From an uncultured virus (IMG/VR IMGVR_UViG_3300030376_004332) (lineage: Duplodnaviria; Heunggongvirae; Uroviricota; Caudoviricetes), in IMG/VR virus record IMGVR_UViG_3300030376_004332: a stretch of 64,000 nt of DNA; one strand, given 5' to 3'. Numbering within the stretch: position 1 is the stretch's first letter; each line of letters begins with the position of its first letter. A program made the position numbers and the translations under genes. This document shows positions 479 to 33,600 of this stretch, one piece after another. The notes beneath the pieces are model-generated. The model had not been told where the DNA came from and searched no databases. It saw only the letters and a list, made by a program, of their open reading frames with translations.

Positions 479-1438
479 TTAATACATTCCTGACATACCT
501 GCCCCCACACCATCAGGAGCAATACGCAAAGTTGGTTTAGCAGCACCTCTGTACGAGTCAGTGTCTGCTTCTAAAAGTTGAGCTACTGTTGCCCAATGAT
601 ACTGGGCTCTTTGTAAATCTGCATTGTCTTCTCCAAACTTACCCAATAAGGCATGTTTCAATATAGAGTTAGAGGGTAAAATCACTAAGTCAGAACCACT
701 ATCCACATCCACCCACTTCCTCTTTAAAAGCATATGGGCAGACGAAGAGTTGTTAGTGTTACCTATTCTATACCTCCTATAGCGTACAGTCCCAGATCCA
801 CTAGGTAAGTCAGCTAAAGTAACGGCATCAAAACTATCATCAAAAGGATCTGCTATAACCCTTATAGTATACCCATCAGGGATATTACTATAAATTATTT
901 GTTCTATACTAGATATATTAACTCCAGATCCTGTATCTGCTGTGTTTGTTTGATCCAAACGATAGTCCATAAAACCATCTCCAGTAGCAGAACCCTTGTA
1001 TAAAACGTCCACAGTAAAGGGATCAGTAGGTAAACTATCATTATAGTTCCTTACGGCTTGGAGCTCAAGCTGATACGCATAAGCAGTCTCTATATCTCTG
1101 TACGTAGAAGAATACCCATCATCAATAAAAGCACTTAACACAGTTTCATCCTGTGTATTAGTACCAAAACTCTTGTAATCATGCCATAAAGAACGTGTTG
1201 GGAGTGGGTTATTATCTAATACTCCATGTAATATAGAGTCAGTGTCTTGAGGTAGTGAAACATAACCTTTAGAAGCATCTTGTGTATGCTCGGTTAACAT
1301 ATCCCTCCAATACCCCATCTTATAGATACGAGGCATCACTTCATTCAAAGCATTGCGGAAATCTTCCTGATGTGCAAATTCAACGTCTAAATATTGGGAA
1401 TGGGTAGCAAATAGTTGTTCTGTAGTTTTAGCTGGCAC
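479..1438 (-). CDS. Putative tail adaptor/tubular protein
   Basis: Long ORF in the structural block; GTG start at 1438 chosen because TTGAAT-16-TATATT lies just upstream; function inferred from position only. Confidence 0.55.
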   Translation of the reverse strand: MPAKTTEQLFATHSQYLDVEFAHQEDFRNALNEVMPRIYKMGYWRDMLTEHTQDASKGYVSLPQDTDSILHGVLDNNPLPTRSLWHDYKSFGTNTQDETVLSAFIDDGYSSTYRDIETAYAYQLELQAVRNYNDSLPTDPFTVDVLYKGSATGDGFMDYRLDQTNTADTGSGVNISSIEQIIYSNIPDGYTIRVIADPFDDSFDAVTLADLPSGSGTVRYRRYRIGNTNNSSSAHMLLKRKWVDVDSGSDLVILPSNSILKHALLGKFGEDNADLQRAQYHWATVAQLLEADTDSYRGAAKPTLRIAPDGVGAGMSGMY

Positions 1439-1485
1439 GATCCCTAAATATAAGGCGTTTACAACGCAATTCAACCTATGAACTA

Positions 1486-4400
1486 CTAAGGAGCTTTCAA
1501 TACTTTCTCAGACCCAGAAACCGTCTGAAATGTTGAAGGTGTGGTATTTACAGCAGTAATTAGCGTTTGGCTAGTTGTATTTGCTGCTGTAAACACATTA
1601 ATACCACCAGTTCCGCTTTTCGTAAGTACATTGATAGAAGATCCTGTACTAGTTATGAAAGTTCTTTGGTTATCCGCAGTAGAAATATATACATGTCTAG
1701 CTTCAGTATCAGTGGTTTTTACAAATTTAGCAGTGTCAGCAGTATCTGTGGAATACAGACGGATACCACTTGCAGCCGAAAGCCCTGTAATTCCAGTATA
1801 AGATCCGAGTGTATGTTTAAAAGTCTTGGCTGAATCTATGCCATCTACGTTAGCGCCTGTTGTTTTTACGAATTTAGCACTAGAACCATCACTTAAACTA
1901 GAAGCTGTTAAAACATTCACAGCACTACCCACACTAGTTATGAAAGTTCTTTGAGTATCAGCACTTGAAACATACACATGACTAGCTCCCGTATCTGTAG
2001 TCTTTACAAACTTTGCGTTATCAGCCGTTGCTGTAGAATATAGATGTATATTTGATCCTGAAAGACCTGTAACACCAGTGTAAGATCCGAGTGTATGTTT
2101 AAAAGTCTTGGCTGAATCAATACCAGTGCCAGTTGTCTTTACAAATTTTGTGCTTCCTAGACTACTTCCAGATTTTACAACATGGATGGGGCTACCTGAG
2201 CTTGTTATAAATGATTTAGTGGTACTTGCATCAGAAAAATAAACATGATGTGTTCCCGTAGCGGTTGATGGTTGTAAGAAGTTATGATTAGTAGCGCTAC
2301 CTGCTTCATATAATTTTGCTCCAGATGTAATTCCCGTTACAGCGTTAAATACAGACATTCCAGATTTTAAAATTTTATCCCCTGATACACTCTGTGCTAC
2401 TTTTAAAAACTTTGTAGTACTATCAGCAGTACCTGTAGAATATAAATGGAGTGATGTATCAGTTCCTGAAGGACTTAAAAATCGAGTGCTAGTTGTTGAG
2501 GTGTCTGTAGAATAAACACGATGACTACTCCCTTCGTTTTCTGTTGTCTCTAAAAATTTGTTTGTGGTCGTAGATGGTACTTCGTATACAGAAACATTTT
2601 CATCATCATTAGAAGAAAGCCCTGTGTAGTTTTGGAATGTGTGTTTAAATTGTTTAGCTGATGCTAATGAACTGTCATTAGATTTTACATAATTAACTGC
2701 TGATACTCCTGATACAGTATCAGATGTTAAAATACCTATGTTGCTCCCTAAACTAGTTAAGAATGTCATATCATCAGTGGCATCTGAAACATACACATTA
2801 TGTGTTGAATCGGTATCACCTGTCTTTAAAAATTTAGTCTCTCCACTAGTAGGTGCTTTATATAGGTTAGAACCAGCTGCAATACCTGAAACTGCGTCGA
2901 AGGCAGTCATACCAGATCTTAAAGTTTCTGATGAATTAGACGAAGTAGTCTTTAAATATTTTGATTGTGTAGGCGCATCAGAAAAATATAAATTAAGTGA
3001 AGCACTTGACAATCCTGTAGTTAAAAATCTAGTGTCAGTAGCTGCTGACGTAGTAGCATAAATATGATAATCAGTATCGCCTGACTCTTCAGTATCTAAA
3101 AATGTGTGGGAAGCATCAGTATTTTCTTTATAAACTTTAACCGTGTTGGCCGAAAGTCCTGTGACACCGTCATGCGTGTCGATTGTGTGCATGAACTCTT
3201 TTTCACCCGACCAATTATCATTTGTTTTTACATAATTGGTGGTAGAGAAATCATTGACTGATGTTACTACTTTTATAGGCGACCCAGAACTAGTTATGAA
3301 GGTTCGGGGGTCAGTAGCATCTGAAAAATAAATATGTCTCTCTTGGCCGCTCGCTTCAGTAGTTTCTAAAAATTTGTGTGACGAACCATCAGCTTTATAA
3401 AAAGCAGCAGAAGATCCTGAAAGTCCTGTAATACCATCATGCGGAACAGCACCAACTCTTAGTGTTTTTGTTCCTGACTCGCTCGCACCTACTTTTAAAA
3501 ATTTAGTAGTACTATCTGGAGTAGCAGACGAATATAAATGAAGAGAAGTTGCTGAAGTTCCAGAACTTAAAAGCTTTCTTGTTGTGGACTCAGTTGATGA
3601 ATATACATAATTTATAGTACCATCTGACTCTGTAGTCTCTAAGAAAGTGTCTGATGAACTTTCTGATGGTGCAGGAGCTTCATATAATGAAACACCAGAA
3701 GATATTCCTGTAACTCCAGTATACGTTCCTATACCCGTCCTCAAAGTTTCGGCTGAATTAACCGATACTGTCTTTAAGTATTTTGATTGAGTAGCTGTAT
3801 CAGAGGTGTATACGTCGTATGCTGTTTTACTAGTATTAGTAGTGTTACTTAAAAAGTTTCTACTTACATTGCTGTCAGTATAATATACCTTAGTTGTATC
3901 ATTGTTATCGTCATCCGTATCAGCCTCTAAAAATCGTTTTCCTGTACTTGCAGCAGTATAAAATAGTATCCCAGAACCACTAGATATGCCTGTAATTCCA
4001 TTATACGTAGTAGCTCCATTTCTGAAAACTACAGAAGTCTCAGTAGTGCTATCTGTAGTTAGTACTTTAGAAGCTGAGACTGCGCCCGTAGAAAAATATA
4101 AATGATAAGGAGTAGTAGTCTCATCAGAAGGTGGGCTTAGATATGACCTAGTATCTGAAGACCCTGTTGTACTATATAAATAAACAGATGGGGCAGAAAG
4201 ATTTTTAACTCCTGTGTATGTAGACATCCCAACCTGAGCAGTTAACGTAGCTCCAGTATTAGAAGGAACAGTTTTTGGTGCAATTACCCAAATCATTGTA
4301 CTACCAGTCGTAGAATCAGGTACTTGCCTAAATACTAACTCTATTGGAGAGCCTCCGTGTAAAGCACCCGTTTGTTGTTGTAAATTTTCTTCTAAGTCTT

Positions 4401-6741
4401 CTGTAACACGACTAAACGATTTAGTCGTCATATCTGTAGGACTACAAGTAAAATTAGTACCTCCTGTTAAAGCGCCCGATTGTTTTGATAAAGAAATTGT
4501 ACCTAACTCAGTAGTAGTAAAAGTTTTGACGGGCAGCGTGGGGGCAGAAATCTCCTCTGTGTTTAATGGTGTTGGGTTACATGTAAAATCAGCGCCCCCT
4601 TGTAAAGCATTCGACTGAGGGGCTAAACTTGTTTTATCTAATTCTCTAGCTTTATAAGTTTTAAGTGGGGCAGATAGTACTGGAGCTTCTGTTGAATGTA
4701 ACTCAGTAGTGTCAGTATCTAAATCAACACCACCTTTTAAGGCAGTAGCTTCTTTAGTTAACGTCTCGTTCCCTAATGCTCTAGAAGTGTATGTCTTAGT
4801 GCCTAAAGTTATGCCCGTGTCACTTGGTGGAGTTATTGAAGTAGTGCTTAAAGGCACTGTCTCTAAAGAAACTTCTGCCGTAGATCCTGATTTAGATAAA
4901 GTATTAGGTTTCTTTTCTAGTTCTTCTCGCTCTAACGTCCTAGAAGTATATTTTTTAGTATCAAATTCTAATACAGGCGATGGTGTTGTATCTAACTCTG
5001 TAGGAGTTGTAACTAAATTATTACCTCCTGTGAAAGATGAAGTTACACTTGTTGTCTCAGTCGCAACTGTTGTAGGAGTATATTCCTTTCTAGTTAAAGT
5101 TATCCCAGAGTTGCTCGGAACTTTTATTGTAGTTGGTGTTAAAGGGACTGACTGTAAATTAACATCTGTTCCTGATGCTAACCCTGTCGTAGCAGTTAGC
5201 GTATGTGGAGTTAATTCTCTAGAAGTATATGACTTAGTCCCCGTAGCTTGAACAGGCACACTTGTTGAACTTAAAGGGGTAGCCGTTGTTGTTAAATTAT
5301 CACCCCCATGTAGCGCAGTAGCGTCTATACTTACTGTTTCAGTTGATAATTCTACAGAAGCATACTGTTTAGTTTGTAAATCTAAGCTCGTACCATCTGG
5401 GGGTGTTATCTGTTGGGTATCTAAAGATACAGCCTGAAAGGAAATATCAGTACCCCCAGAAACAGAATTAGTTGCTTGTGAAAGCGATTCAGTACTTACT
5501 GGTGTAGGAGTGTATTCCTTAGTATCTAAAGCTAACCCTGAACCAGTTGGAGGAGTTATTGATGAAGAAGTTACTGAGACAGATTGAAGGTCAATGCCCG
5601 TACCCCCAGAAACACTACCAGACACTTGTGATAAAGCTTCAGTGCTTACTGCTGTAGGAGTATATTCGTAAGTATCTAAAGCTAAACCAGAACCAGATGG
5701 AGGAGTTATTGAAGATACTGATAAGGCTTCAGGTGTACTTGTTATGCTAGGGCTTGAAGTAACAGTATTAACTGTAGTTCCCGAACCTGTTGCTTTAGCA
5801 ACTTGTACAACTTCTAAATTACTTGGGGTTCCAGTCAATAACCCATCTGCAAACGTAGCTAATGTTTTTTCATTTGCGGTTGTCCCCGATGCAGGAGGGT
5901 TGTTATAAGTTACCTGAGAAGCAGCTATAGCTTTCCAAGTTTTATCATTACTGTTCCCTCGGATGTTTATCTGGTCGCCAGCAGTCTCTATATGGATTTG
6001 ACCTTGTTTCTTCAGAGTCCTTAAATTTTTCTTATCATCACTCTTAGTATAATCTCTATATATTAGCCCCTCACCTACCCCTAAATTATTTAAAGTATTA
6101 TATCCGCAAGACCATATGAGAGGCCCCCTATGACCCTCTATACCACCATGATCCCTTACAGATCTTGGATCATCTTTGTCAGAATCATAATTATTTCTTA
6201 AAATAACCCCATCTGCAAATTTAAATAAAAGAACATTATATATACCGTACTTCTCAGTATCTTCAGTCCCATCACCATCCAACAACTCAAATGGTGTTGA
6301 TTCAGGAGGATCGTCTTCTTCTGTCTTTAAGAGAATATAATCATCTAAAAGCTTCCCCTGTTGATTCGTCATAAATTGTGAGTACACACAACCTTTCTTC
6401 GTATCTAACTTTATCTTTAAAGGACTTAGTTCATGCTTTTTAATTAATTCTGTAGTAAGTGGATGGATTTCATATAAGTAAGCTTTTGTTATATAAACAA
6501 ACTGATCCCCATCAGGCTGGTAGTTATAAGGTTCATGCTCCTGACGATAACGAATTTCATCTTGAGGAGTTGCCCCAACCATACCCGAAGGATGATTGCT
6601 ACTATAAGCCCCACTGTCGGCAGCCCCTTGTTGACCTACAGCGGAAAGATTACTTAATGAAGCATCTGTTACATCCCTGTCAGCAGGAGATATTGGGTTC
6701 CCAAAAGCTCCAATATTACCATCTTTAAATTGTTCAGACAT
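1486..6741 (-). CDS. 1751-aa Ser/Thr-rich tail fibre-like protein with mirrored repeat arrays
   Basis: Non-repetitive N-terminal domain, then ten ~35-50-aa repeats, a short turn, and ten ~65-95-aa repeats; located in the tail block. Confidence 0.7.
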   Translation of the reverse strand: MSEQFKDGNIGAFGNPISPADRDVTDASLSNLSAVGQQGAADSGAYSSNHPSGMVGATPQDEIRYRQEHEPYNYQPDGDQFVYITKAYLYEIHPLTTELIKKHELSPLKIKLDTKKGCVYSQFMTNQQGKLLDDYILLKTEEDDPPESTPFELLDGDGTEDTEKYGIYNVLLFKFADGVILRNNYDSDKDDPRSVRDHGGIEGHRGPLIWSCGYNTLNNLGVGEGLIYRDYTKSDDKKNLRTLKKQGQIHIETAGDQINIRGNSNDKTWKAIAASQVTYNNPPASGTTANEKTLATFADGLLTGTPSNLEVVQVAKATGSGTTVNTVTSSPSITSTPEALSVSSITPPSGSGLALDTYEYTPTAVSTEALSQVSGSVSGGTGIDLQSVSVTSSSITPPTGSGLALDTKEYTPTPVSTESLSQATNSVSGGTDISFQAVSLDTQQITPPDGTSLDLQTKQYASVELSTETVSIDATALHGGDNLTTTATPLSSTSVPVQATGTKSYTSRELTPHTLTATTGLASGTDVNLQSVPLTPTTIKVPSNSGITLTRKEYTPTTVATETTSVTSSFTGGNNLVTTPTELDTTPSPVLEFDTKKYTSRTLEREELEKKPNTLSKSGSTAEVSLETVPLSTTSITPPSDTGITLGTKTYTSRALGNETLTKEATALKGGVDLDTDTTELHSTEAPVLSAPLKTYKARELDKTSLAPQSNALQGGADFTCNPTPLNTEEISAPTLPVKTFTTTELGTISLSKQSGALTGGTNFTCSPTDMTTKSFSRVTEDLEENLQQQTGALHGGSPIELVFRQVPDSTTGSTMIWVIAPKTVPSNTGATLTAQVGMSTYTGVKNLSAPSVYLYSTTGSSDTRSYLSPPSDETTTPYHLYFSTGAVSASKVLTTDSTTETSVVFRNGATTYNGITGISSGSGILFYTAASTGKRFLEADTDDDNNDTTKVYYTDSNVSRNFLSNTTNTSKTAYDVYTSDTATQSKYLKTVSVNSAETLRTGIGTYTGVTGISSGVSLYEAPAPSESSSDTFLETTESDGTINYVYSSTESTTRKLLSSGTSATSLHLYSSATPDSTTKFLKVGASESGTKTLRVGAVPHDGITGLSGSSAAFYKADGSSHKFLETTEASGQERHIYFSDATDPRTFITSSGSPIKVVTSVNDFSTTNYVKTNDNWSGEKEFMHTIDTHDGVTGLSANTVKVYKENTDASHTFLDTEESGDTDYHIYATTSAATDTRFLTTGLSSASLNLYFSDAPTQSKYLKTTSSNSSETLRSGMTAFDAVSGIAAGSNLYKAPTSGETKFLKTGDTDSTHNVYVSDATDDMTFLTSLGSNIGILTSDTVSGVSAVNYVKSNDSSLASAKQFKHTFQNYTGLSSNDDENVSVYEVPSTTTNKFLETTENEGSSHRVYSTDTSTTSTRFLSPSGTDTSLHLYSTGTADSTTKFLKVAQSVSGDKILKSGMSVFNAVTGITSGAKLYEAGSATNHNFLQPSTATGTHHVYFSDASTTKSFITSSGSPIHVVKSGSSLGSTKFVKTTGTGIDSAKTFKHTLGSYTGVTGLSGSNIHLYSTATADNAKFVKTTDTGASHVYVSSADTQRTFITSVGSAVNVLTASSLSDGSSAKFVKTTGANVDGIDSAKTFKHTLGSYTGITGLSAASGIRLYSTDTADTAKFVKTTDTEARHVYISTADNQRTFITSTGSSINVLTKSGTGGINVFTAANTTSQTLITAVNTTPSTFQTVSGSEKVLKAP

Positions 6742-8045
6742 TAATTAAAAGAGGGTGGGAATACAGTAGTAGTTTCTTTTATATAGCCTCCCCTAGCTTT
6801 TTGTTGCGTTACCCTAGCTTCAAGACCATCGACAGCTAACTGAAGAAGATTGGGTGGGTCTGTGACAGGTAAGTCTTTAACATAAGCTGTATATTTATAA
6901 ACAGGGTCAGTAGTTCCTGTAGTAAACCCAACTGAACCTCCATTCATTAAACAAGCTGGTATTCTTAAATTTATATAAGGAGTAGAAAATGCAAAAGATT
7001 GAGGCTGCATAGCTTTAGCTGAAGGAGCAACACCAGCTCCTTCAAACTCTATAACTTTATATTCTTTTTTAACTACCGCTTTACAAGGCCCACTATATCC
7101 TTCTGGATTCATATGGTACTCTGGATTATGCTGAACTTGACCATCATGTTTTTCCCAAGCCACAGAAGAAATACTCTCTAATACAGGTGGGAATGTAAAA
7201 TTGATAGAAGTGTCTAGTTCTTCAATAAGTAAAGTGGTATTTGAGTTTATTGTTCCGTCAGGAGTTGTCCCTGCAATCGTTTCTGTTTTTACAACTTCAA
7301 ACCAATCTAAAGATACCTGCCTCCCTTCTTTATAAAAAGCGACTGCTTTCTTAGGAGTACTTCCACTATCTCTATATTCTATGGCCGTGCCCCAATAAGA
7401 ATTATCAGCGTCAGAAATTAAAGTCTGTATATTTGAAGAAGCTCCAGTAGGAGTCTCTCCCAACGCAAAATAACTAACTGTTGCTTTTAAATTAGAACTA
7501 GACATCTCATCCCACCTTAGCGTTTCAATATCTTCTCTAACAAAAAACACTCGCTGCTCAACAATAAAGTAGCCGTCTAATTCTGGGTCACTTAACCGTT
7601 TTTGTTGGCGTGACATTAAGATGTAACCTTTTCCAGTAAAGTTAGCTGAAGAAGGTTCAGTAGGCATAGCATCACCAGCCTCTAAAGAAGCATCATCTTC
7701 TTTAAAATCTGATCTAGGTGTAACATAAGTCCTAACAACAGTATTAAACTTAGACTGACCTAAACTAGCTTGTGAGTATTCAAAGTTGTACTCATCTTGA
7801 CTAGCCCTAGAAGCAGCATAGTAGTACTGATATAATTGCCCCTCAGCATCAAACTGTTTTACAAAGACTAGTTTGTGGTTAGGGAACTTAGAAGTATTTG
7901 GGTGAGCTGATCCATAAACAGGGGGTGTTTTACCAACACGTTGTTTATCTACAGTCTCATAAAATAATAGATCTTGAACATTTGGAGATACAAATGTTAA
8001 TACTGACTGCCTTTGGGGGCTTGGTTGATTTCTATTTACAGGCAC
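6741..8045 (-). CDS. Putative tail/structural protein
   Basis: 434-aa ORF, GTG start, TAATG-coupled to the fibre gene. Confidence 0.6.
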   Translation of the reverse strand: MPVNRNQPSPQRQSVLTFVSPNVQDLLFYETVDKQRVGKTPPVYGSAHPNTSKFPNHKLVFVKQFDAEGQLYQYYYAASRASQDEYNFEYSQASLGQSKFNTVVRTYVTPRSDFKEDDASLEAGDAMPTEPSSANFTGKGYILMSRQQKRLSDPELDGYFIVEQRVFFVREDIETLRWDEMSSSNLKATVSYFALGETPTGASSNIQTLISDADNSYWGTAIEYRDSGSTPKKAVAFYKEGRQVSLDWFEVVKTETIAGTTPDGTINSNTTLLIEELDTSINFTFPPVLESISSVAWEKHDGQVQHNPEYHMNPEGYSGPCKAVVKKEYKVIEFEGAGVAPSAKAMQPQSFAFSTPYINLRIPACLMNGGSVGFTTGTTDPVYKYTAYVKDLPVTDPPNLLQLAVDGLEARVTQQKARGGYIKETTTVFPPSFN

Positions 8046-8708: not shown

Positions 8709-8773
8709 GCCTACTCACTTTAAGAAACAGTGAAAATTAATTGACTTCTTTTTATCTAGAGCGAATATCAGGC

Positions 8774-9481
8774 ATGGAAAAAATATTTATTGCTACCCCA
8801 ACATACGGATACCAAGCCTTTATAGATTATATGCATGGTTTGGTTAACTTTGTAGCAAGCGATTCTCCAGAAGATTTAAAATACGAGACATCTTTACACT
8901 TACATTCAGGATCTTCACTAGTTACTCACGCTAGAAATAATTGTGTGCTCCAGTTTTTAAAAACAGACTGCACAAAGCTACTGTTTATAGACGCTGATAT
9001 TGGATTTGAGCCTGAAAACATTTGGAGGTTACTAAGGAAAGATGAAGATGTTGTACTAGCCCCCTACGTAGTTAAGACTTATTCAGGGAAAGAACAGGAT
9101 AACTTTGTTGTACATTACAAAGACCCAAGCAATATAGCTGTAGATGACCAAGGTTTTATTGAGATAGAAGCAGGACCAGCAGGTTTTATGATGATAGATA
9201 GAAAAGTTTTTGAAAAACTACACGAAGCTTATCCTGAGAAAAAAGTATTTATACGCCACCTTATTGAAGGTGTAGTAACAGAAGAACCAAACTACTACAC
9301 ATACTTTGATTGTAGTACTTCAGAAAATGGACACTCAGGAGTAGGTGAAGACTTAGCTTTCTGTAAACTGTGGACTAAAATAGGTGGTAAAATATTCTGC
9401 GATGCACACGCAAAACTTACACACTGTGGCACACGTCAGTTTAGTGGTGCTTTAATAGAATCGTTAGTAGGGAAAGAGTAA
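8774..9481 (+). CDS. GT-A fold (GT2-like) glycosyltransferase
   Basis: IFIATPTYG N-terminus, ARN, FIDADIGF (DxD), GFMMI and GEDLAFC motifs; ATG at 8774 preferred; TTGACT upstream at 8741. Confidence 0.8.
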   Translation: MEKIFIATPTYGYQAFIDYMHGLVNFVASDSPEDLKYETSLHLHSGSSLVTHARNNCVLQFLKTDCTKLLFIDADIGFEPENIWRLLRKDEDVVLAPYVVKTYSGKEQDNFVVHYKDPSNIAVDDQGFIEIEAGPAGFMMIDRKVFEKLHEAYPEKKVFIRHLIEGVVTEEPNYYTYFDCSTSENGHSGVGEDLAFCKLWTKIGGKIFCDAHAKLTHCGTRQFSGALIESLVGKE

Positions 9482-13301: not shown

Positions 13302-13724
13302 TTAGGTGTTTTCTAAATAGGATATCGTTTTTTTAAGTAAACTAATATCGTCTTTAAAACACCCAATAGCACGATTACATGGATGACAAAGCCAACCTCT
13401 TGCTTTATGGGTTGTGTGGCAGTGATCTAATACCCACGGCCCTAATTTTAAACCCCCTTTTCCAGCAACCTCTTCAGCACGTCCACCACAAATAGGACAA
13501 CAATGATTTAATGACGGGGGAGTAGTTGTTTGTTTTAAACAATCACGAACTTTTTTTAGTTCATTATTACAATTTCTGCATTCTGGCCTATAATAATTGG
13601 CTCCTCCATGTAAAGAAAAACTACTAATAGGTAATATTTTAAAGCATTTATTACACTTGCGGGTATCTACCCCTTTAGGTATAGAATAAAATTCTTTAAA
13701 TAGCTCTGTTTGTTTATAAAACAT
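13302..13724 (-). CDS. Endonuclease VII-like (His-Me finger) nuclease
   Basis: CxxC pairs; CPIC...LDHCH...RGWLCHPCNRAIG. Confidence 0.85.
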   Translation of the reverse strand: MFYKQTELFKEFYSIPKGVDTRKCNKCFKILPISSFSLHGGANYYRPECRNCNNELKKVRDCLKQTTTPPSLNHCCPICGGRAEEVAGKGGLKLGPWVLDHCHTTHKARGWLCHPCNRAIGCFKDDISLLKKTISYLENT

Positions 13725-17486: not shown

Positions 17487-17948
17487 TCACCATACACAGT
17501 CCACAATCTCTTGTACTTGCCTACAACGACGGCATCCCTCGTAGTCGTACAGGGTTACGTATTGTCTGCCGTGATTAGTTCTTTCTGACACAAGGTACAT
17601 CTTTCCTGCGTTTGGTCCCCGTCTTGGGGGCTCCATACAGTAAATAGCCCCGTACTCGGTCACAGAGTAGCGAGGATACTCTGGAACCTGCCTAGCTTTA
17701 ATTTGGCCCTCAATCATGGCTCTCGTTAATTCTGGGGGGTTCTCATCGCTAAAAATGAGCTCGGCTAGTCTTTGGGAGTCTACAGACACACGCCTCCCTG
17801 AGTTTTTGTATATGTTGCAATACCACCGCCCACTTTTGAACTGGGATTTCAAACGACGGCCTTTGTTGTAAATAAAACCGTGTTGGTCTATCTCGTACTT
17901 TGTTTTGGGGATGGGGCGACGTTCGGTGTTTTCTAGTAGGTTTTCCAT
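17487..17948 (-). CDS. Protein with tandem NUMOD4-like motifs
   Basis: IP..KYEID.HG.I and VP.YPRYSVT.YG.I repeats; no HNH catalytic motif visible. Confidence 0.55.
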   Translation of the reverse strand: MENLLENTERRPIPKTKYEIDQHGFIYNKGRRLKSQFKSGRWYCNIYKNSGRRVSVDSQRLAELIFSDENPPELTRAMIEGQIKARQVPEYPRYSVTEYGAIYCMEPPRRGPNAGKMYLVSERTNHGRQYVTLYDYEGCRRCRQVQEIVDCVW

Positions 17949-27409: not shown

Positions 27410-27626
27410 AAACTATATTAAGACTGATAATGATAGTGAATACGAATGGATCGCAATGCTTAACAAAGACAACTCATATGAGATCGTTGGCAGTATTGAG
27501 GGATCTAGAGTATTACTATATCGTGGCGAAGGTAAACAAACTAGCTTGAGTTACTTCAAGCATCTAGCCCACAAGCACGGATCTCTTTCCGCAACAATAC
27601 CTTTCAGCAGTTTAGCGATAGCTTAA
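27399..27626 (+). CDS. Hypothetical protein
   Basis: Overlaps the previous ORF; stop overlaps the convergent giant ORF. Confidence 0.6.
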   Translation: MKLKNYIKTDNDSEYEWIAMLNKDNSYEIVGSIEGSRVLLYRGEGKQTSLSYFKHLAHKHGSLSATIPFSSLAIA

Positions 27627-30600
27627 TCTTGATCGTGTCTGTAGAATCGGGGTAAGTTTTTGAAGTAAGCACTTAGCAGTCGCTCTCTTCTTAGGAAGGT
27701 TGCGTCTCCTGTCAGCTTGTACTTATCCCTCAGTTTCTTTTTCAATCCTTTGTGGGTTTCTCTTGGTGTCTCTGTTACACCCTTTAGCAAGAACCCATAT
27801 CTTCGTTTACCGAACTGAGAACCAAACACGATCTTCCTAACTTCCTCATCTGATAACCCACCGAGAGACGCTAGATTTTTTAACGTGTGTGCTACTTCTT
27901 TATCTAGCCTTATTCTATGATCTATTTCATCTAGTACTAGTCCTTTGATTTCATTATCTGATAAAGGATTATCACTAAGAACTATATTCTTTCTAAGAGA
28001 AATATTCTGCGTCTCCCTTCTTACATCAAACAAGTATCTCCTCATGTTGTTTGAGATATCTATTGTGTAAGGCTTGGCAGGATAAAACTCTTTACCTATC
28101 CGATCAAAGATATCCTCGACAGGGCTAGTACCAATCATCTTCTTTACCTCACGACCTGCTTTAATTGTTCTCGGTTCTATTGCTTCTTTTAGTAGAAATC
28201 CTGCCCCCTTTATAAATACATCTTCAGCCGTATCTCTTTCTTCCCATATCTTTTTATTTGTTTGAGGATCTCTGTTTGATTTAAGTGCCATAAAAGCACC
28301 TGCAAAAATTTGATCATCTAAGTATTCATTCAAGATCAACCCTTCTATAAAGCTCATGCCCATAGAAGCAGGGCTTTCCCCTCTGAATCCTTTTTCAACT
28401 GAACGTAGAACAGGGTCTGCTAATAATGCATATGGGTTTAGATAAGTGAAGTCTAAAGTTTTCAAATCGTTACCCTCTCTGTAGATGAAAAAGGTGTGCC
28501 CTCTTAGATATTCTACAAGCGTTCTTCTGAGTGCTGCATCTTCTTCATCATCAACATCATTTAGTAAACGCATTGCCAATGGAGCTGCTGCTGATAAGCC
28601 GACTGTTGTCCCAAGGAATCCTGTTAGTCTTCTTAATCCTCGAAGTTTTATAACAGTACTCGGATCTTTTATTTCTTGGACAGCTAGTCGTATTGTATTT
28701 ACAGATATCCTAACGATCTCTCCTTTGAATCGAATGAATGGTGCAAACATAACTCCGACAGAGGAGTTCGTCCATCCCCTTACTAATGGAGAAGCTCTAC
28801 TATAAGATTGAGCTGTACTTAAAACTTTATCTGCGGCTTCTCTTTTGATTTCATAATCTGTCATGTTAGCGTATTTGCCCTGCCCTTTCTTTTTAGCTTT
28901 CTGCAATACTGCTAACTCATGTTCGTAGTAAGAGATCTTATAGAAAGTATCTACTACAGCCGATAGATCTTTAAGTTTACTATATAGTTTGTTTATGGGA
29001 GTACCTAATTTCTTTAGGTCACTTTCTTTAGTACTATCATCAGTTAATTCATCTAGCTGTTTAGTTGTAGCATAGACTTCATTCATCAAATCATTTGGAG
29101 TTGTCTCTCCCTTAAAGATTTCATCAAGCATCTTAGGTCTAATCTCATCCCCGATAATATCGAGAGCATCTAGTTCAGAGTAATACTCATCTAGTTTAAC
29201 CTGACTAAAGCGGTCGCCTGTATATAGATTACGATGACGCACTAATTCTTTAAGACCATTTTTTGTATACCTTATGGGAGCAATCATCCCTTGAGATAAA
29301 CCGAAGTATACTACGTTACCTATTATGTTTCTAAAATAGAATCCAATAGATCCTAATGTTTTAGATGCCATAGATAATCCTGTTAGGTTATGTGCCATCC
29401 TATTTAATTCATTGGCTACAACTTCTGATTCATTTAAAGATTGTGTAGACATATCTCCTAATGACTTCAAAGCTGTGAGCATATCATTAGGGACATAATA
29501 TTTTTTACCTTGGGATACATTGACCCAAGGATCATAACGATAATCCCCATCTCCTACTACCCTTGACCAATTCTTTTGGTCATCACCTAAAGCTTTCCAT
29601 TCAGTTTCTTCAATGATCCACCCGTTCTTTTCTTTCATACCGAAGTCCAAAACATTTTTTAAGTATGCTTGGTGTGAAGCCATAATACCTACGTGCATAT
29701 ATGTACGCATGACCGCATCATAACCAGTAGCGTCTCCTTCTTCTCCCATTAAAGCCCTCAACTGAGCTGGAACATCTTTCCTTTCTTTTAGTCTTTCTTT
29801 AAGTATGTGCGTGAATCCCATACGTTTAGCAGCATCGTCTCCTTCCACTAGCTTTACACCTGTATCAGATGTAAATAGATTATCTTTATTTGAAAAAGAA
29901 TTTAAGAAAGAAACCATCATATTATGTATGAGTGGTGGTTGATCAGAAGGAGACTTAGTTGGGTCTGCCCTTAGTTCTTTGTCAGCTATTTCTTTAGCGT
30001 GTTCTAAGTTTGTAATTACATTGCCCGATGAGTCTTTTTCTTTTTTAAGTATTATCTCTAAACCCCTATAGTTTCTGTATTCTTCAGAAAAGAAATCCGC
30101 AGCTTCTGAACGAACAAGATCATACTTTGAATCATACATTACTGAATCCGTAAAACCTGCTTCTGAAAATAATTTATATTGTCTTGTGAGGTATACTTCT
30201 AGATTAGCATCAATCGTAGAGTTTATTGTTTTCTTAATATCTGGATCATTAGGAAATAGTTCTCCAATCTTTTTAGAGAACTCATCTGTCTTTCCTCTAA
30301 GTGCTAACAAGTGTCTTACTATTTCTGATTTAGGATCTCCGTTATCATCATAACCACCTAACTGTTCTATGGCATACTCTCTCCGTTGTTCAAGTACAGC
30401 TCTTCTATTTTGATAAGCCCTCTCATAGACTAATGTTTTTTCATCATCTATTGCTTTAAGTTCTGAAGTAACCCGTTTAATATTAATCTGTACCTCTTTA
30501 TTATTAGGTGCGTTTTCTAATTGTTCATTCAACTCAGCTAATACTTGAGTTAGCCTTTTTAATTTTGTATCAAAAGTCTTACGAATAAGTGCAGTAGTAT

Positions 30601-33600
30601 CATCATCTACTTTTAAAACTTCAGCATCACCTGTTATGCTACGGAACAAATCCACAGGTGCGCCATCTGGAAACTCTTTTGCTACTAGTACATCTAGTCT
30701 ATCCTTATATCTTTGTATCTCATTGAATATAGCATTACGTAAAGCAGTACCTTGTTGATGTAATCTTTGTAGTCGGGGGTCAGCCTTACCTACTAGCTTA
30801 TTCATCCAACTCATTAGCCCTTTATACTCACCACGATATTTCCCTGTCTTCATCAAAGGAAGCGTTAACATACCCGTTAGGTTTCCGTATTTAAATACTT
30901 CGTTCCTTGTAGTCTCTGTTGTGGTATTACCATCCACTTGAGATTGGGTCATCTCAATAACAGTACCTGTTTCTGGTTGGATATCCATATCCTCTTCCGA
31001 AGTTTCCGTCTGTATTTTTAAAGCACTAACTACTTTCAAAGGATTATCAGGGTCAAAGGAAGGGGGTTGTCCTATTTGATATCCAGCCTTCATGTCATTG
31101 TATGCTTGAACAACTCTGTTAACAGACATAGACATATAAGGATTACTTGAATCGCTTTTTAAAGCAGTAGTTATTCTATTAATAAAACCTTTTAAGTATC
31201 TCAACAGAACAGAAATTATATTTGGGTTATCCATATAGAATGCTTTGTCCTCTTCTGTAGTGAATCCTTTCACTGCCCTTTGTACGTGCATACGCAAAGC
31301 TTCTTTAGCTAATGTCCGTTGTTCTTTTAAAGATACTTCCGAATCTTCGTTATATAGCCTAGCTCTAGCTGCTTGCCTATCCTCTTCTGTTTGATAATAA
31401 GTATCTATTGTTTTATTAATTTCAGATGTGGGTAACTGATTATAGAAATCCGAAATTTCTTCTGAGGTAAGATCAGCGAAAGTAGCTGCGTGAATTATTT
31501 CCTCTGTAACTATAGATGATGTTAATGCTTTAGCATTTATATCAGATAGTCCTTTTATTAAACCTACTAACCCATTAGGTTCAATTTGAATATATGATTC
31601 ACCATCGTCTGTTACAACATAACTAAAAGGTTTAATAGGTTTCCCCGCATCTTCGGCTGCTTGTCTTTGTTCTTCGGGCACTACCTTAACTTGAACCCCA
31701 AACATTTGGGAGAGTAAAGTCAAGTCAGCCATAAGACCTTGTACCTTCAGTAAGTGCTCTTGTTGGTTTCCTTCAAGTGAATCAAATTCATCTTGTGGTG
31801 AAAGGTTTCTAATCTGTGACTCAGTAGTCTCATCATTGATGGTGTTAAGTTTTTCTTCTAAATCGAATTTATTTTTAGCTGCACTAACCGCACGTATCTG
31901 TTCTCTTAAAGCATCACGGACTCCCTCATTGTCTGGTAATTCTAATTTTGTAACGAACTCAACTTTGTCATCAAGCTCTTGAAGTAAATTATTGATGTCG
32001 TTGTACTTAACTGTTCTTGTTATAGGTATTCCATTTGACCAATTAGGTGTAAAAGAATATTTAACTTCCGTGTCTTTCTCTTTACTTCCTTCAGGAATCC
32101 ACTCGCCTGTACCCTTTACCCTACTGTATCCATTGTTATTTAAATATATGGCAAGTGGGATTTCACCTGTACTAAGATAGTTCCTCCTACCTTTTTGTTT
32201 TGTTTCTGATAATCCTTCACCTGTTAAATGCTCATTAGTATCCATTACAATGGTAGCACCTTTTTCCATTGCTTTATCAATGAGTTTATATTCTCCTAAT
32301 AACTCACCATCTCTTATAGGTAGTATAGAATTTTTTCGTTTACCATTAGAGGCTACAAAAATAACATCCGAAGACTTATAATTTCCTGTGTTTGCTCTAC
32401 CCCTTTTATTATATAAATCGTAGTACCTATCTGTTGAAGAGCCTTTTGCACCTTGACCAATAAACTGCGTAGCTTTTCTTGTCTTGACTTGTTCTTTCCC
32501 TAAGTAACCTGCTTTTTTAGCCCCATCACTTATAACGGTTTCTATCTCTTTTGTTGTAGCCCGTTGCAGTATTTTGTTTTCGTATATTTCTACTATAGGT
32601 CTTAGTGCATCGCTTTCTTTTATATAAAGATTAAGTACTGCTTCTTCAGAACCCGTATAATTTGGGATGGGTATACCAAGCTCATTAAGAAGAGTAGTAT
32701 TACCCTGTTCTTCTAAAAATAATATCTCTGCATCTAATTGTAAAAGACGAGCTTTAGCTTCAGACAGTTTAATCTTTTTAGTAGTCTTCCTACCTGTGTC
32801 AAGTGGGTTAGGTAGAACGTCTATAGAATCATACGAGTAACTTATTTCTTGATCTATCTCTGGGGTATATAAAGCTCGATCATTCTCGTTGGTTACTTCA
32901 GCTAATACTTTTCTTAAAGCTTCAATATGTTCTTTAACATCTTCTACAGAAGCCTTAGATATTTCGTTTATATCATACGCATACTCGTACTGGGTGAGTT
33001 TCGCTTCAAGCTCCTTCAGTTTTTTAGGGGCATCATTTAACTTAACAGTATCTGTACTTTCTGTAGTGTTAGTCTCTGGATCGTTTTCCCCCCAAGTATA
33101 TCTTATATTAATATTTATAGGTTTAGAAGCTTCAGTTGTTTCTTGCTCTAAAGAAAAATCTGAACCCCTTCCCCTTACTTCAGCGACTGCTTTTTCTAAA
33201 GAAGCAATACGTGCTTTAGAATCTTCTAAGTAATTTCTATCTATAGAACGATCAGTACCAAAGTCAGAACCTGATTCATAAGCTTCTGTATCTGATGCAA
33301 GTTTTTCTTTTAACTCTTTAATTTTTGCATCAGCATCATTTAATTTAACAGAATCTGTACTTTCTGTAGTGTTAGTCTCTGGATCGTTTTCTCCCCAAGT
33401 ATATCTTATATTAATATTTATAGGTTTAGAGGGAGCGGTTGTTTCCTGCTCTAAAGAAAATGACGTTGGTTCCTTAGTTGTTTGTGGAGTAAAAACAGCT
33501 ACGTACTGTAGGGTGGATGAGTCACGTAGTTCTTTAGCTACTAAGATCTCATGTATAGCTCTTGCTTGTGACGTAACCTTACTTCCAAATTTATTTTTAG

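Follow-up and report, generated by a model that had tools for sequence, protein, structure and literature searches.

A fibre gene of an uncultured marine tailed phage with two mirror-ordered repeat arrays that probably fold as an out-and-back hairpin

The stretch of DNA analysed here (the window; 64,000 nucleotides from an uncultured virus of the Caudoviricetes, IMG/VR record IMGVR_UViG_3300030376_004332) codes for a terminase, DNA polymerase, primase, helicase, and exonuclease, as well as a 2619-aa fibre-like open reading frame (ORF) similar to gp28 of cyanophage P-SCSP1u (8i4m). A 3664-aa ORF was considered as an N4-type virion RNA polymerase and rejected, having no PDB or Pfam match. The gene of interest (P0001) is a single ORF on the minus strand, from 1486 to 6741, and its product of 1751 aa has an N-terminal domain followed by an N arm of 10 units, a tip of 44 aa, and a C arm of 10 units. 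The same gene lies directly upstream at every locus examined (429-437 aa, 57-96% identical among six loci), and another lies directly downstream (318-361 aa across loci). At one locus (L038) the fibre relative adjoins a conventional tail-fibre gene and precedes an endolysin. P0001 is a structural/late gene of a tailed phage in a tail-fibre and lysis neighbourhood, and this neighbourhood, together with weak fold matches of the N-terminal domain, points to a fibre function. The downstream gene was also considered as a tip-specific adhesin or chaperone, and we rejected this because it is 90-93% identical among the window and loci L001 and L002, despite their three different tips, and two loci that share a tip have copies with just 63% identity. 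The features are as follows, with all repeat units delimited by unit alignment and HMM, and with levels numbered according to the pairing of N and C units proposed below.

1486..6741, minus strand: whole gene, 1751 aa (P0001), N-terminal domain, N arm, tip, and C arm
5749..6741, minus strand: N-terminal domain and linker, residues 1-331, conserved family-wide, core with a weak likeness (Z 4.1-5.4) to shoulder domains of phage receptor-binding proteins and TssK
5602..5748, minus strand: N1, type A, residues 332-380, level 1 (outermost)
5452..5601, minus strand: N2, type A, residues 381-430, level 2
5302..5451, minus strand: N3, type A, residues 431-480, level 3
5170..5301, minus strand: N4, type B, residues 481-524, level 4
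5023..5169, minus strand: N5, type A, residues 525-573, level 5
4879..5022, minus strand: N6, type B, residues 574-621, level 6
4729..4878, minus strand: N7, type A, residues 622-671, level 7
4594..4728, minus strand: N8, type B, residues 672-716, level 8
4459..4593, minus strand: N9, type B, residues 717-761, level 9
4351..4458, minus strand: N10, short type S, 36 aa, residues 762-797, level 10 (innermost)
4219..4350, minus strand: turn or tip, residues 798-841, proposed distal fibre end, from an alignment of 23 tips
4006..4218, minus strand: C1, short type S', 71 aa, residues 842-912, level 10
3724..4005, minus strand: C2, type B', residues 913-1006, level 9
3442..3723, minus strand: C3, type B', residues 1007-1100, level 8
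3175..3441, minus strand: C4, type A', residues 1101-1189, level 7
2902..3174, minus strand: C5, type B', residues 1190-1280, level 6
2629..2901, minus strand: C6, type A', residues 1281-1371, level 5
2350..2628, minus strand: C7, type B', residues 1372-1464, level 4
2083..2349, minus strand: C8, type A', residues 1465-1553, level 3
1801..2082, minus strand: C9, type A', residues 1554-1647, level 2
1489..1800, minus strand: C10, type A', residues 1648-1740, level 1, with the conserved C-terminal tail, residues 1741-1751
6741..8045, minus strand: upstream gene, 434 aa, overlapping the fibre start by one base
479..1474, minus strand: downstream gene, 331 aa, directly downstream of the fibre gene at every locus examined

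A self-dotplot of P0001 (BLOSUM62) shows two blocks that are each repetitive internally but dissimilar to one another (residues ~325-800 and ~825-1711), and segmentation by a MAFFT alignment of units and HMMs gives the 10 N and 10 C repeats of unrelated families that a preliminary description of this DNA had reported. The N array has units of 36-50 aa each (residues 332-797; 4351-5748), nearly all of which end with GG or SG, as had been noted for most of them, and the C array has units of 71-104 aa each (residues 842-1751; 1489-4218), with the 44-aa turn (residues 798-841; 4219-4350) lying between the two. Threonine and serine make up 33-34% of the arms, and the N arm has 4 histidines and the C arm 22.

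The two arrays have the same subtype order in reverse. In the MAFFT unit alignments, type A is marked by a 5-residue insert (in N1, 2, 3, 5, and 7), and type B' by a 2-6-residue insert (in C2, 3, 5, and 7). The resulting order is an exact mirror, A A A B A B A B B S in the N array and S' B' B' A' B' A' B' A' A' A' in the C array, and the mirroring of subtypes and of the short unit that had been proposed earlier thus holds for subtypes defined by these indels. A Mantel comparison of the unit-similarity matrices gives r=0.77 for the mirrored mapping, a value reached in 14 of 200,000 random permutations, versus r=0.28 for the direct mapping; with the short units left out, the mirrored value is r=0.74, reached in 19 of 51,840 permutations. 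The outermost units had also been described as recent DNA duplicates, and N1/N2 and C9/C10 are indeed the most similar pair in each array. However, they are not recent, since whole-unit DNA identity is 72% for N1/N2 and 64% for C9/C10, and both pairs are already separate units in relatives with just 58-63% identity; the 91% DNA identity within C9/C10 is confined to 66 nt (1778-1843 versus 2060-2125).

The close family consists of 23 proteins from marine metagenomes. It had been asked whether homologs vary their N and C unit numbers independently; the two numbers are equal in 22 of the 23 by reading and in 20 by raw HMM counts, these being related sequences and so not independent events. The series includes proteins with 1/1 N/C units (L004, P0033-36, P0011, and P0037-39), 2/2 (P0010 and P0032), 10/10 (P0001, P0002, and P0006), 11/11 (P0003, P0005, P0008, and P0009), 13/13 (P0004 and L001), and 14/14 (P0007 and L002). 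The short types are likewise paired, S (36 aa) with S' (71 aa) and T (25 aa) with T' (~50 aa); S counts of 1, 0, 1, 3, and 4 match S' counts of 1, 0, 1, 3, and 4, protein by protein, and T is found exactly where T' is found. The N:C unit length ratio is ~1:2 for every type, and the C arm is 1.94-2.08 times the length of the N arm in 11 long proteins. P0007 and L002 share a paired deletion, with ~15 aa gone at the N9/S junction and ~21 aa at the S'/B' junction, two sites that the mirror scheme assigns to a single level. Forms with anything from 1 to 14 levels share a conserved C-terminal tail, and it is the mid-gene tip that varies.

The least probable explanation of these patterns, and a very improbable one, is that the N and C arrays form separate domains in series, folding independently of each other, and owe their equal numbers to ancestry, chance, or an outside length requirement. 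Many of the sequences are closely related, as this would have it, the proposed contact between the arms rests on sequence comparison and not on structure, and the coupling of the arms does not extend to single residues (the N arms of P0008 and P0003 are 496 and 494 residues long, and the P0008 C arm is 60 residues longer). However, the mirroring extends beyond equal number to subtype order, and both deletions and exchange breakpoints are paired at mirrored positions. A neighbouring gene was also considered as a ruler protein and rejected; the lengths of the upstream and downstream genes are constant whatever the level number, so no ruler encoded next door lies behind the coupling.

The breakpoints are evident in pairwise comparisons. 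N-arm identity between P0003 and P0008 is 0.39-0.66 over levels 1-8 and rises to 0.92-1.00 over levels 9-11, and the mirrored C arm has 0.49-0.67 and then 0.96-1.00; the per-level identities of the two arms are correlated at 0.88 when mirrored and at -0.42 when taken directly. In P0004 versus P0007, the switch is at level 9/10 in the N arm and the C arm alike. Because replacement of a contiguous central segment itself yields genes that are similar inside and divergent outside, the information lies solely in the agreement in level between the two breakpoints, with a chance of roughly 1 in 10 per event. P0003 and P0005 have a tip identity of 0.35 and identities of 0.68-0.94 at the levels flanking the tip. 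As the tip lies mid-gene, tip and inner levels may be exchangeable as one nested cassette.

Coupling recurs in distant subfamilies that use other repeats, unrelated in both sequence and length, which argues further against independent serial arrays. With unit boundaries set by eye, a subfamily with 40-aa N and 39-aa C units includes proteins with 0/0 (P0019 and P0021), 1/1 (P0026), and 2/2 units (P0025), P0041 has 12/12 nine-residue units, and P0043 and P0044 have 6.5/6.5 and 8.5/8.5 units, respectively. The P0018-like group, with repeats unrelated to those of the window, has 1/1 (L068) and 2/2 forms (L066 and L067), in which an independent paired duplication has affected the outermost unit of each arm, N and C. 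Across the subfamilies with unrelated repeats, N:C unit lengths are 9:9, 21:18, 40:39, 70:74, and 50:90 residues. N-arm and C-arm lengths are correlated at r=0.993 in 43 of 48 pooled proteins (five were left out that lack an N-domain or tip HMM match) and at r=0.90 for the 32 proteins shorter than 1000 aa, both uncorrected for phylogeny. A separate metagenome scan, partly overlapping in its sequences, gives r=0.986, likewise uncorrected, for 40 unique complete ORFs, leaving out 19 ORFs of which 15 are cut by contig ends and four are missed by the tip HMM. The family, with roughly 100 known members, is common in marine metagenomes, with 66 loci in one scan and near-identical DNA in 20 public runs from 13 studies.

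We note, however, that the coupling is strong and not absolute, since unbalanced forms exist. P0031 has three N and two C units, P0018 and L065 each have one outer N and two outer C units, and P0020 has ~7.5 N and ~9.5 C units by manual segmentation. Such forms are what independent serial domains would allow, but near-identical young copies are involved in every case; L065 and the balanced L066, for example, are 99.9% identical save for one 70-aa gap. Exactly one C unit of the window gene (1798 to 2081, 282 nt) is absent from a Logan contig of run X5, with the joint at a 38-nt exact repeat where a misjoin is possible, and the window sequence is matched piecewise by contigs of four runs; Logan contigs break at repeats and therefore cannot decide repeat-number variants. 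It is plausible that length changes by one change in each arm, made sequentially, and that unbalanced intermediates arise but do not persist.

The alignment of 23 tips shows two conserved strand-like stretches flanking a loop that varies in sequence and length, down to ~2 residues in P0034, and a short variable loop between two strand-like stretches fits a reversal of the chain. AlphaFold2 also predicts two strands at the tip, with low confidence (pLDDT 40-56). Mirror order, coupled counts, and level-matched breakpoints would suit pairing between chains as well as within one, and extended chains without any reversal could lie antiparallel, the N arm of one on the C arm of another. We regard this as improbable: the conserved pair of strand-like stretches at the centre, around a loop as short as ~2 residues, is what marks a hairpin turn, just ~45 residues separate the N and C units in one-level forms, and an antiparallel rod would have an attachment domain at each end. 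Known phage fibres are parallel trimers. Cysteines in the linker after the N-terminal domain also tend to accompany cysteines among the final 16 residues (both in 33, linker only in 4, tail only in 6, and neither in 18 of 61 distinct combinations), although this is weak as evidence because the pattern follows clades. We infer that the N and C units pack within one chain.

The N-terminal domain HMM matches 43 of the 48 pooled proteins, and this domain gives the only confidently modelled region, residues ~73-190 of a 529-aa one-level homolog (L004, 7125-8711; AlphaFold2, 21-row alignment). The arms of that model have pLDDT <50, apart from a slightly more confident strand in the last C-terminal block (pLDDT 57), and a monomer model of the P0001 central fragment 672-1100 (11-row alignment) has a mean pLDDT of 28 and a pTM of 0.17. 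A complex prediction with the one-level homolog cut after the tip (296-408 x3 plus 409-529 x3) is neutral, with ipSAE 0.00 in both runs, partner pLDDT <50, and no controls. Because both AlphaFold2 models are of low confidence in the arms, the hairpin is derived from comparison of sequences. Residues from ~64-69 to 214 of the one-level model align by VIA-align to shoulder domains with Z of 5.4-3.0 and rmsd of 3.9-4.4 A over 76-94 residues, values of Z that VIA-align itself calls common for unrelated folds. Ten of the top 11 VIA-align rows are phage fibre, receptor-binding (RBP), or baseplate proteins or TssK, all weak (Z 2.8-5.4), and Foldseek with the same model finds no PDB match at E<=0.001.

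Sequence searches place P0001 in no known family. There is no match in Pfam or PHROGs, and phmmer against all PDB chains gives no match at E<=1 for P0001 and only chance-level, non-fibre matches for the one-level homolog. Neither the whole protein nor its N-terminal domain has a tblastn match among 50,697 records of cultured phages, 12 kb of the window has no megablast match to the cultured-phage collection, and the ESM Atlas gives no usable match or model for the fibre protein. That no fibre family is matched by sequence would be in keeping with a different object, a monomeric or otherwise assembled out-and-back string of nested discontinuous domains, with one N unit and one C unit in each and an architecture of recursive domain insertion, perhaps a decoration or spacer and not a trimeric fibre, and such nested domains would explain all of the coupling evidence equally well. 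We consider this unlikely, although less so than the alternatives above. Autonomous globular strings often fold in prediction, whereas the AlphaFold2 monomers left the arms unfolded, albeit with shallow alignments (11 and 21 rows); the arms have a fibrous look, being one-third Thr plus Ser and, in distant relatives, having nine-residue strand-turn periods in both arms; and the neighbourhood and weak N-domain matches point to trimeric receptor-binding proteins of phages.

We therefore favour a reading in which the gene probably encodes a long fibre of an uncultured marine tailed phage that is built as a hairpin, and we assume that it is trimeric, by analogy with other fibres. The N-terminal domain (~320 residues) would anchor the fibre to the virion, and the chain would go outward through the N arm, reverse in the ~44-residue beta-hairpin-like tip encoded mid-gene, and come back through the C arm, which would bring the C-terminus next to the N-terminal domain. 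A stack of levels would make up the shaft, each made of one N unit and one C unit that are distant in sequence, with level i from the base formed by N unit i and C unit k+1-i (k=10 here). Fibre length would depend on how many levels there are, from 1 to 14 among relatives. The proposal that the chain runs out and folds back to pack unit n with unit 11-n was put forward in the preliminary description, and coupled counts, mirrored deletions and breakpoints, paired duplication in a distant group, and arm lengths all argue for it. Host contact is likely to be made by the distal tip, whose apical loop is variable, and we infer that this tip is the receptor-binding end.

Beyond this gene, the evidence leans, by a modest degree, towards an undescribed and widespread family of marine-phage fibres in which the whole shaft is a nested hairpin with a mid-gene host-contact tip, the levels are formed from segments possibly kilobases apart, and length (from 1 to at least 14 levels) changes through sequential duplication in the two arms and level-matched exchange of central cassettes. 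In the open-access full texts searched, no fibre is described in which paired repeat arrays stand in mirror order. Phage receptor-binding proteins are usually read with the N-terminus proximal and the C-terminus distal, and a chain that folds back over its full length would break this rule, with host-range determinants to be sought mid-gene, where automated annotation and engineering by C-terminus swaps would miss them. If correct, this architecture would also mean that two unrelated repeat arrays, distant from each other within a single gene, are under a strong and readable mutual constraint, and it would add a new rule to the modular evolution of fibrous proteins, with a length series for the co-evolution of in-register repeat arrays. 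The apparent intermediates kept in metagenomes would make paired-repeat expansion directly testable, and forms with 1, 2, 10, 11, 13, and 14 levels would be natural graded rods for relating fibre length to adsorption.

Several known systems share part of this design. The shoulder domains with weak likeness to the family N-terminal domain are those of receptor-binding and related proteins (the cyanophage A-1(L) tail fibre, 8kec; the lactococcal phage p2 baseplate, 2wzp; the phage 1358 RBP, 4l92; and TssK, 5y0e), and the same role would apply, with a conserved N-terminal part docking a variable distal part on the tail. These proteins have no sequence similarity to the P0001 family. We know of no return arm in any of them. 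Serial-repeat fibres, such as the 2619-aa ORF product of the window, resemble P0001 in being long, rich in Thr and Ser, built of repeats, encoded in the late region, and conserved at the N-terminus with a variable remainder, but their C-terminus is distal and their single array is free to change length alone. P0001 differs in its two unrelated and mirror-ordered arrays, their coupled numbers, and a most variable spot that lies mid-gene; a serial-repeat tail fibre was rejected as a description of P0001 given the equal N and C numbers in all but one of the close relatives, the conserved C-terminal tail, and the variable mid-gene tip.

The gp37 needle of T4 holds iron through histidines, at repeated His-x-His sites along its axis, and P0001 differs in having no HxH site anywhere. 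The needle tip is the closest known principle, and the out-and-back topology proposed for P0001 is the same. It follows from a passage in PMC9659904, which cites Bartual et al. 2010, that each gp37 chain runs out and back, with the distal receptor-binding part encoded between two needle strands. The needle is given as ~150 A long in a passage of PMC3004832, much shorter than the shaft proposed here. P0001 had been likened to a greatly extended gp37 needle, and the likeness stands in principle but not as a family relationship, with no detectable sequence similarity between the two and no phmmer or tblastn match. The gp37 needle is the end piece of an otherwise serially built fibre, whereas in P0001 the whole shaft (~1400 of 1751 residues, and from 1 to 14 levels among relatives) is proposed to run out and back, and would be built from two different repeat families expanding in step.

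P0001, the fibre-candidate protein of the window, carries two repeat arrays on either side of a turn (the tip), and a self-dotplot bears out the preliminary description in showing two blocks unrelated to each other. The repeats before the turn are N units (the N arm) and those after it C units (the C arm), laid out from alignment and HMM segmentation.

1486-6741, minus strand: fibre-candidate gene, one ORF, 1751 aa (P0001)
Residues 332-797: ten N units of 36-50 aa
Residues 798-841: turn of 44 aa
Residues 842-1751: ten C units of 71-104 aa

Subtypes were told apart by alignment indels and not by eye, with a five-residue insert in N1, 2, 3, 5, and 7 and a short insert in C2, 3, 5, and 7. The mirrored subtype order that had been proposed is exact, the N arm reading A A A B A B A B B S and the C arm S' B' B' A' B' A' B' A' A' A'. 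Comparing the unit-similarity matrices of both arrays by a Mantel-type test gives r=0.77 for the mirrored mapping versus 0.28 for the direct one, a value reached by 14 of 200,000 permutations of all ten units; with the short units left out, r=0.74 is reached by 19 of 51,840 permutations. The exact mirror and the permutation results together confirm that the mirror-ordered arrays are real and beyond chance. The outermost units, however, are not the recent DNA duplicates they were taken for; N1/N2 and C9/C10 have 72% and 64% DNA identity, and only one 66-nt stretch reaches 91%. The two outermost N units are about as alike within the protein as they are to their counterparts in a divergent relative (N1/N2 and C9/C10 of P0001 versus P0007), and they have lineage-specific residues in common, with hints of gene conversion or repeated turnover of the outermost units at the base of both arms.

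The relatives gathered comprise 8 close proteins, 4 viral loci, 22 representatives, 18 further proteins, and 66 metagenome loci, marine throughout where source labels are visible. Independent variation of N and C numbers among homologs would speak against a paired arrangement; on reading, the counts are equal in 22 of the 23 close relatives.

N/C unit numbers in the close relatives (P, proteins; L, loci or contigs)
1/1: L004, P0033-36, P0011, P0037-39
2/2: P0010, P0032
10/10: P0001, P0002, P0006
11/11: P0003, P0005, P0008, P0009
13/13: P0004, L001
14/14: P0007, L002
3/2: P0031

Raw HMM counts at set thresholds are equal in 20 of 23, and reading the sequences settles two of the three mismatches (the first C unit of L001 scores below the cut-off, and the ninth N unit of P0007 is two units fused), leaving P0031 as the only true exception. 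The additional units are special short subtypes paired between the arms: a 36-aa S unit always occurs with a 71-aa S' unit (0, 1, 3, or 4 copies each) and a 25-aa T unit always with a T' unit of ~50 aa, all of them adjoining the turn in mirror order. In length each N type is roughly half its C partner, and the C-arm/N-arm length ratio is 1.94-2.08 in 11 of 11 long proteins. P0007 and L002 lack ~15 residues at the junction of the last B and first S and ~21 residues at that of the last S' and first B', which are one and the same place in the mirror scheme. We note that a single conserved cysteine, set in a short conserved motif, is present in N9 and in all of the short inner N units, S and T (N9/N10 at window 4351-4593; S and T units from P0003-P0009, L001, and L002), with none in their S' and T' partners. 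The total in P0001 is four cysteines (118, 212, 721, and 766). The inner-N-unit cysteines may lie on the fibre axis.

The same coupling rule recurs in distant relatives, in which the N-terminal domain is 30-40% identical and the repeats of both arms are quite different. With a 40-aa N unit and a 39-aa C unit, the counts are 0/0 in P0019 and P0021, 1/1 in P0026, and 2/2 in P0025; P0041 has twelve 9-residue periods per arm, and the count is 6.5/6.5 in P0043 (N unit 21 aa, C unit 18 aa) and 8.5/8.5 in P0044. The P0018-like group includes L068 with 1/1 and both L066 and L067 with 2/2; duplication there affects the outermost N (~70 aa) and outermost C (74 aa) units, at mirrored positions. Arm lengths were also measured independently of units, using HMM anchors at the end of the N-terminal domain and at the tip. 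N-arm and C-arm lengths correlate, across related sequences and uncorrected for relatedness, with r=0.993 in 43 of 48 proteins (five had no anchor), r=0.90 in the 32 proteins below 1000 aa, and r=0.986 in 40 unique complete ORFs of a metagenome scan; the scan excluded 15 ORFs cut by contig ends and four missed by the tip HMM, which have a recognisable tip on reading. The coupling of both arrays across the family is almost certainly real.

Speaking against strict coupling are the unbalanced forms P0031 (3 N/2 C), P0018 and L065 (1 N/2 C), and P0020 (~7.5 N/9.5 C by manual segmentation). A Logan contig of public run X5, near-identical to the window, joins window 1798 to 2081, so that exactly one C unit (282 nt) is absent, and if real this would be a 10 N/9 C variant; the joint sits in a 38-nt exact repeat where the contigs from three further runs break off, which makes a misjoin possible alongside a real variant. 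The surplus unit is, in all unbalanced cases, nearly identical to the unit beside it, and L065 differs from the balanced L066 by one 70-aa gap, outside which the two are 99.9% identical. These forms are thus either very young variants or short-read assembly errors. No old, diverged lineage with unequal numbers was seen among the relatives examined, a pattern consistent with selection against imbalance and also with length changing in two steps, one arm at a time. The P0008 C arm is 60 residues longer than that of P0003 at equal N-arm length; the coupling is per unit and not per residue.

Exchange of central cassettes is evident when proteins of equal architecture are compared unit by unit. Numbering levels from the outermost pair of units (level 1) to the pair next to the tip, P0003 and P0008 are 0.39-0.66 identical in N-arm levels 1-8 and 1.00, 0.97, and 0.92 in levels 9-11, and 0.49-0.67 and 1.00, 1.00, and 0.96, respectively, in the mirrored C arm; between P0004 and P0007, identity switches at level 9|10 in both arms. 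Replacement of a contiguous centre alone necessarily yields similar inner and divergent outer parts, so the informative part of the mosaics is that both breakpoints coincide in level despite N units being half the length of C units, a match that is a ~1-in-10 coincidence per event. The tip can diverge sharply where its neighbours are alike, with an identity of 0.35 between flanking levels of 0.68-0.94 (P0003 versus P0005).

Judged by its genes the window is phage sequence, with PHROGs matches to large terminase, DNA polymerase, primase, helicase, and exonuclease and a Pfam match to an amidase. No cultured relative was found in the phage collection searched, in which the closest DNA polymerase match is 28% identical and 12 kb of window DNA has no match. 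Searches of Pfam, PHROGs, the phage collection, and solved-structure sequences found no match to P0001 itself. Other features of the window are as follows.

8741-9481, plus strand: phrog_1574 member, 246 aa, unknown function
13302-13724, minus strand: endonuclease VII gene (Pfam PF02945)
17487-17948, minus strand: HNH endonuclease gene (phrog_959)
27623-38617, minus strand: 3664-aa ORF, sole match small PHROG phrog_9995 (unknown function) at residues 1619-1692
55647-63506, minus strand: fibre-like 2619-aa ORF matching several PHROG tail-fibre families

Residues 936-1249 of the 2619-aa ORF match fibre gp28 of cyanophage P-SCSP1u (8i4m, E 9e-17), and the phage thus has a conventional serial fibre besides the hairpin candidate. 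The 3664-aa ORF, without sequence match in Pfam or PDB, is reminiscent in size of podovirus giant virion proteins; the searches made lend no support to an N4-type virion RNA polymerase. Both endonuclease genes lie within the minus-strand block containing the fibre gene. The phrog_1574 gene is on the strand opposite to the fibre cluster, and in the related locus L038 its counterpart (4675-5361) shares the strand of the fibre genes, a local inversion between relatives.

In L038 the relative is preceded by a conventional tail-fibre gene and followed by an endolysin. The family gene is always preceded by a gene of ~430 aa and followed by one of ~320-360 aa, both constant in length regardless of level number, and the downstream protein has no correspondence to tip type. 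AlphaFold2 on the one-level homolog (529 aa, from L004) is confident only for the N-domain core (residues ~73-190). Against ~48,000 representative solved chains this model gives weak matches (Z 5.4-2.8), 10 of the top 11 being TssK or phage proteins of the fibre, receptor-binding, or baseplate kind, with the alignment at the N-terminal shoulder region; Foldseek gave no significant match. Threonine and serine make up one-third of arm residues. Gene context, these weak matches, and arm composition lead us to regard the protein as an appendage of the tail, bearing a conserved domain for docking. Among near-identical relatives, the segment at window 5821-6014 (residues ~243-307) occurs in either of two versions; its sequence in P0002, P0006, and P0008 departs from that in P0001, and a contig of run X4 has 189 other nt in place of 192 nt. 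By sequence comparison, this segment is a small swappable cassette in an otherwise conserved docking domain.

AlphaFold2 gave no usable arm model, and we therefore infer the hairpin from comparative sequence evidence of a strong but indirect sort. Across 23 aligned tips, a loop of variable sequence, down to ~2 residues in P0034, lies between two conserved strand-like stretches, and two strands are predicted there in both AlphaFold2 runs at low confidence (pLDDT 40-56). This pattern has the appearance of a chain reversal and is the main argument for a hairpin within the chain over antiparallel association between chains. Cysteines found shortly past the N-terminal domain co-occur with cysteines among the last 16 residues (both in 33 of 61 combinations, one alone in 4 and 6, neither in 18), as expected if the C-terminus returns to the base; this argument is weaker, as the distribution tracks clades and a small number of events may account for it. 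A single chain packed out and back, in a fibre, is the reading we consider probable. Distant members (P0012-P0026 and P0040-P0045; L024-L072) have a conserved Cys-Pro-rich motif at the C-terminal end and one or two cysteines immediately following the N-terminal domain, both lost in the window's subfamily; these could be a disulfide or metal site closing the hairpin base.

In such a fibre, assumed by analogy to be trimeric, the chain would exit the docking domain with N units forming the outward half of each level, reverse at the tip, and return through C units to end beside its starting point. Fibre length would be fixed by level number, and host contact would most likely be through the apical loop of the tip. 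Distant members have simple strand-turn periods of 9 residues, as many in one arm as in the other, and in the window's lineage the returning arm has come to hold twice the residues per level, which suggests that an outer layer may have been elaborated.

Neither P0001 nor the one-level homolog has a sequence relationship to T4 gp37 among sequences of solved structures, and P0001 has no HxH site; histidines have a role in the gp37 needle. Membership of P0001 in the gp37 family is not supported on this comparison. We found no description of a fibre architecture with paired mirror arrays in the open-access full-text literature searched, and a survey of tail-fibre structural classes includes T4-like needle tips and, in the portion available, does not mention such arrays (PMC12143355). 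At the gp37 tip, three chains are described as forming a six-stranded antiparallel needle with a head domain at its end (PMC9659904), ~150 by 25 A in size (PMC3004832). That needle embodies, at small scale, the same out-and-back principle proposed for P0001.
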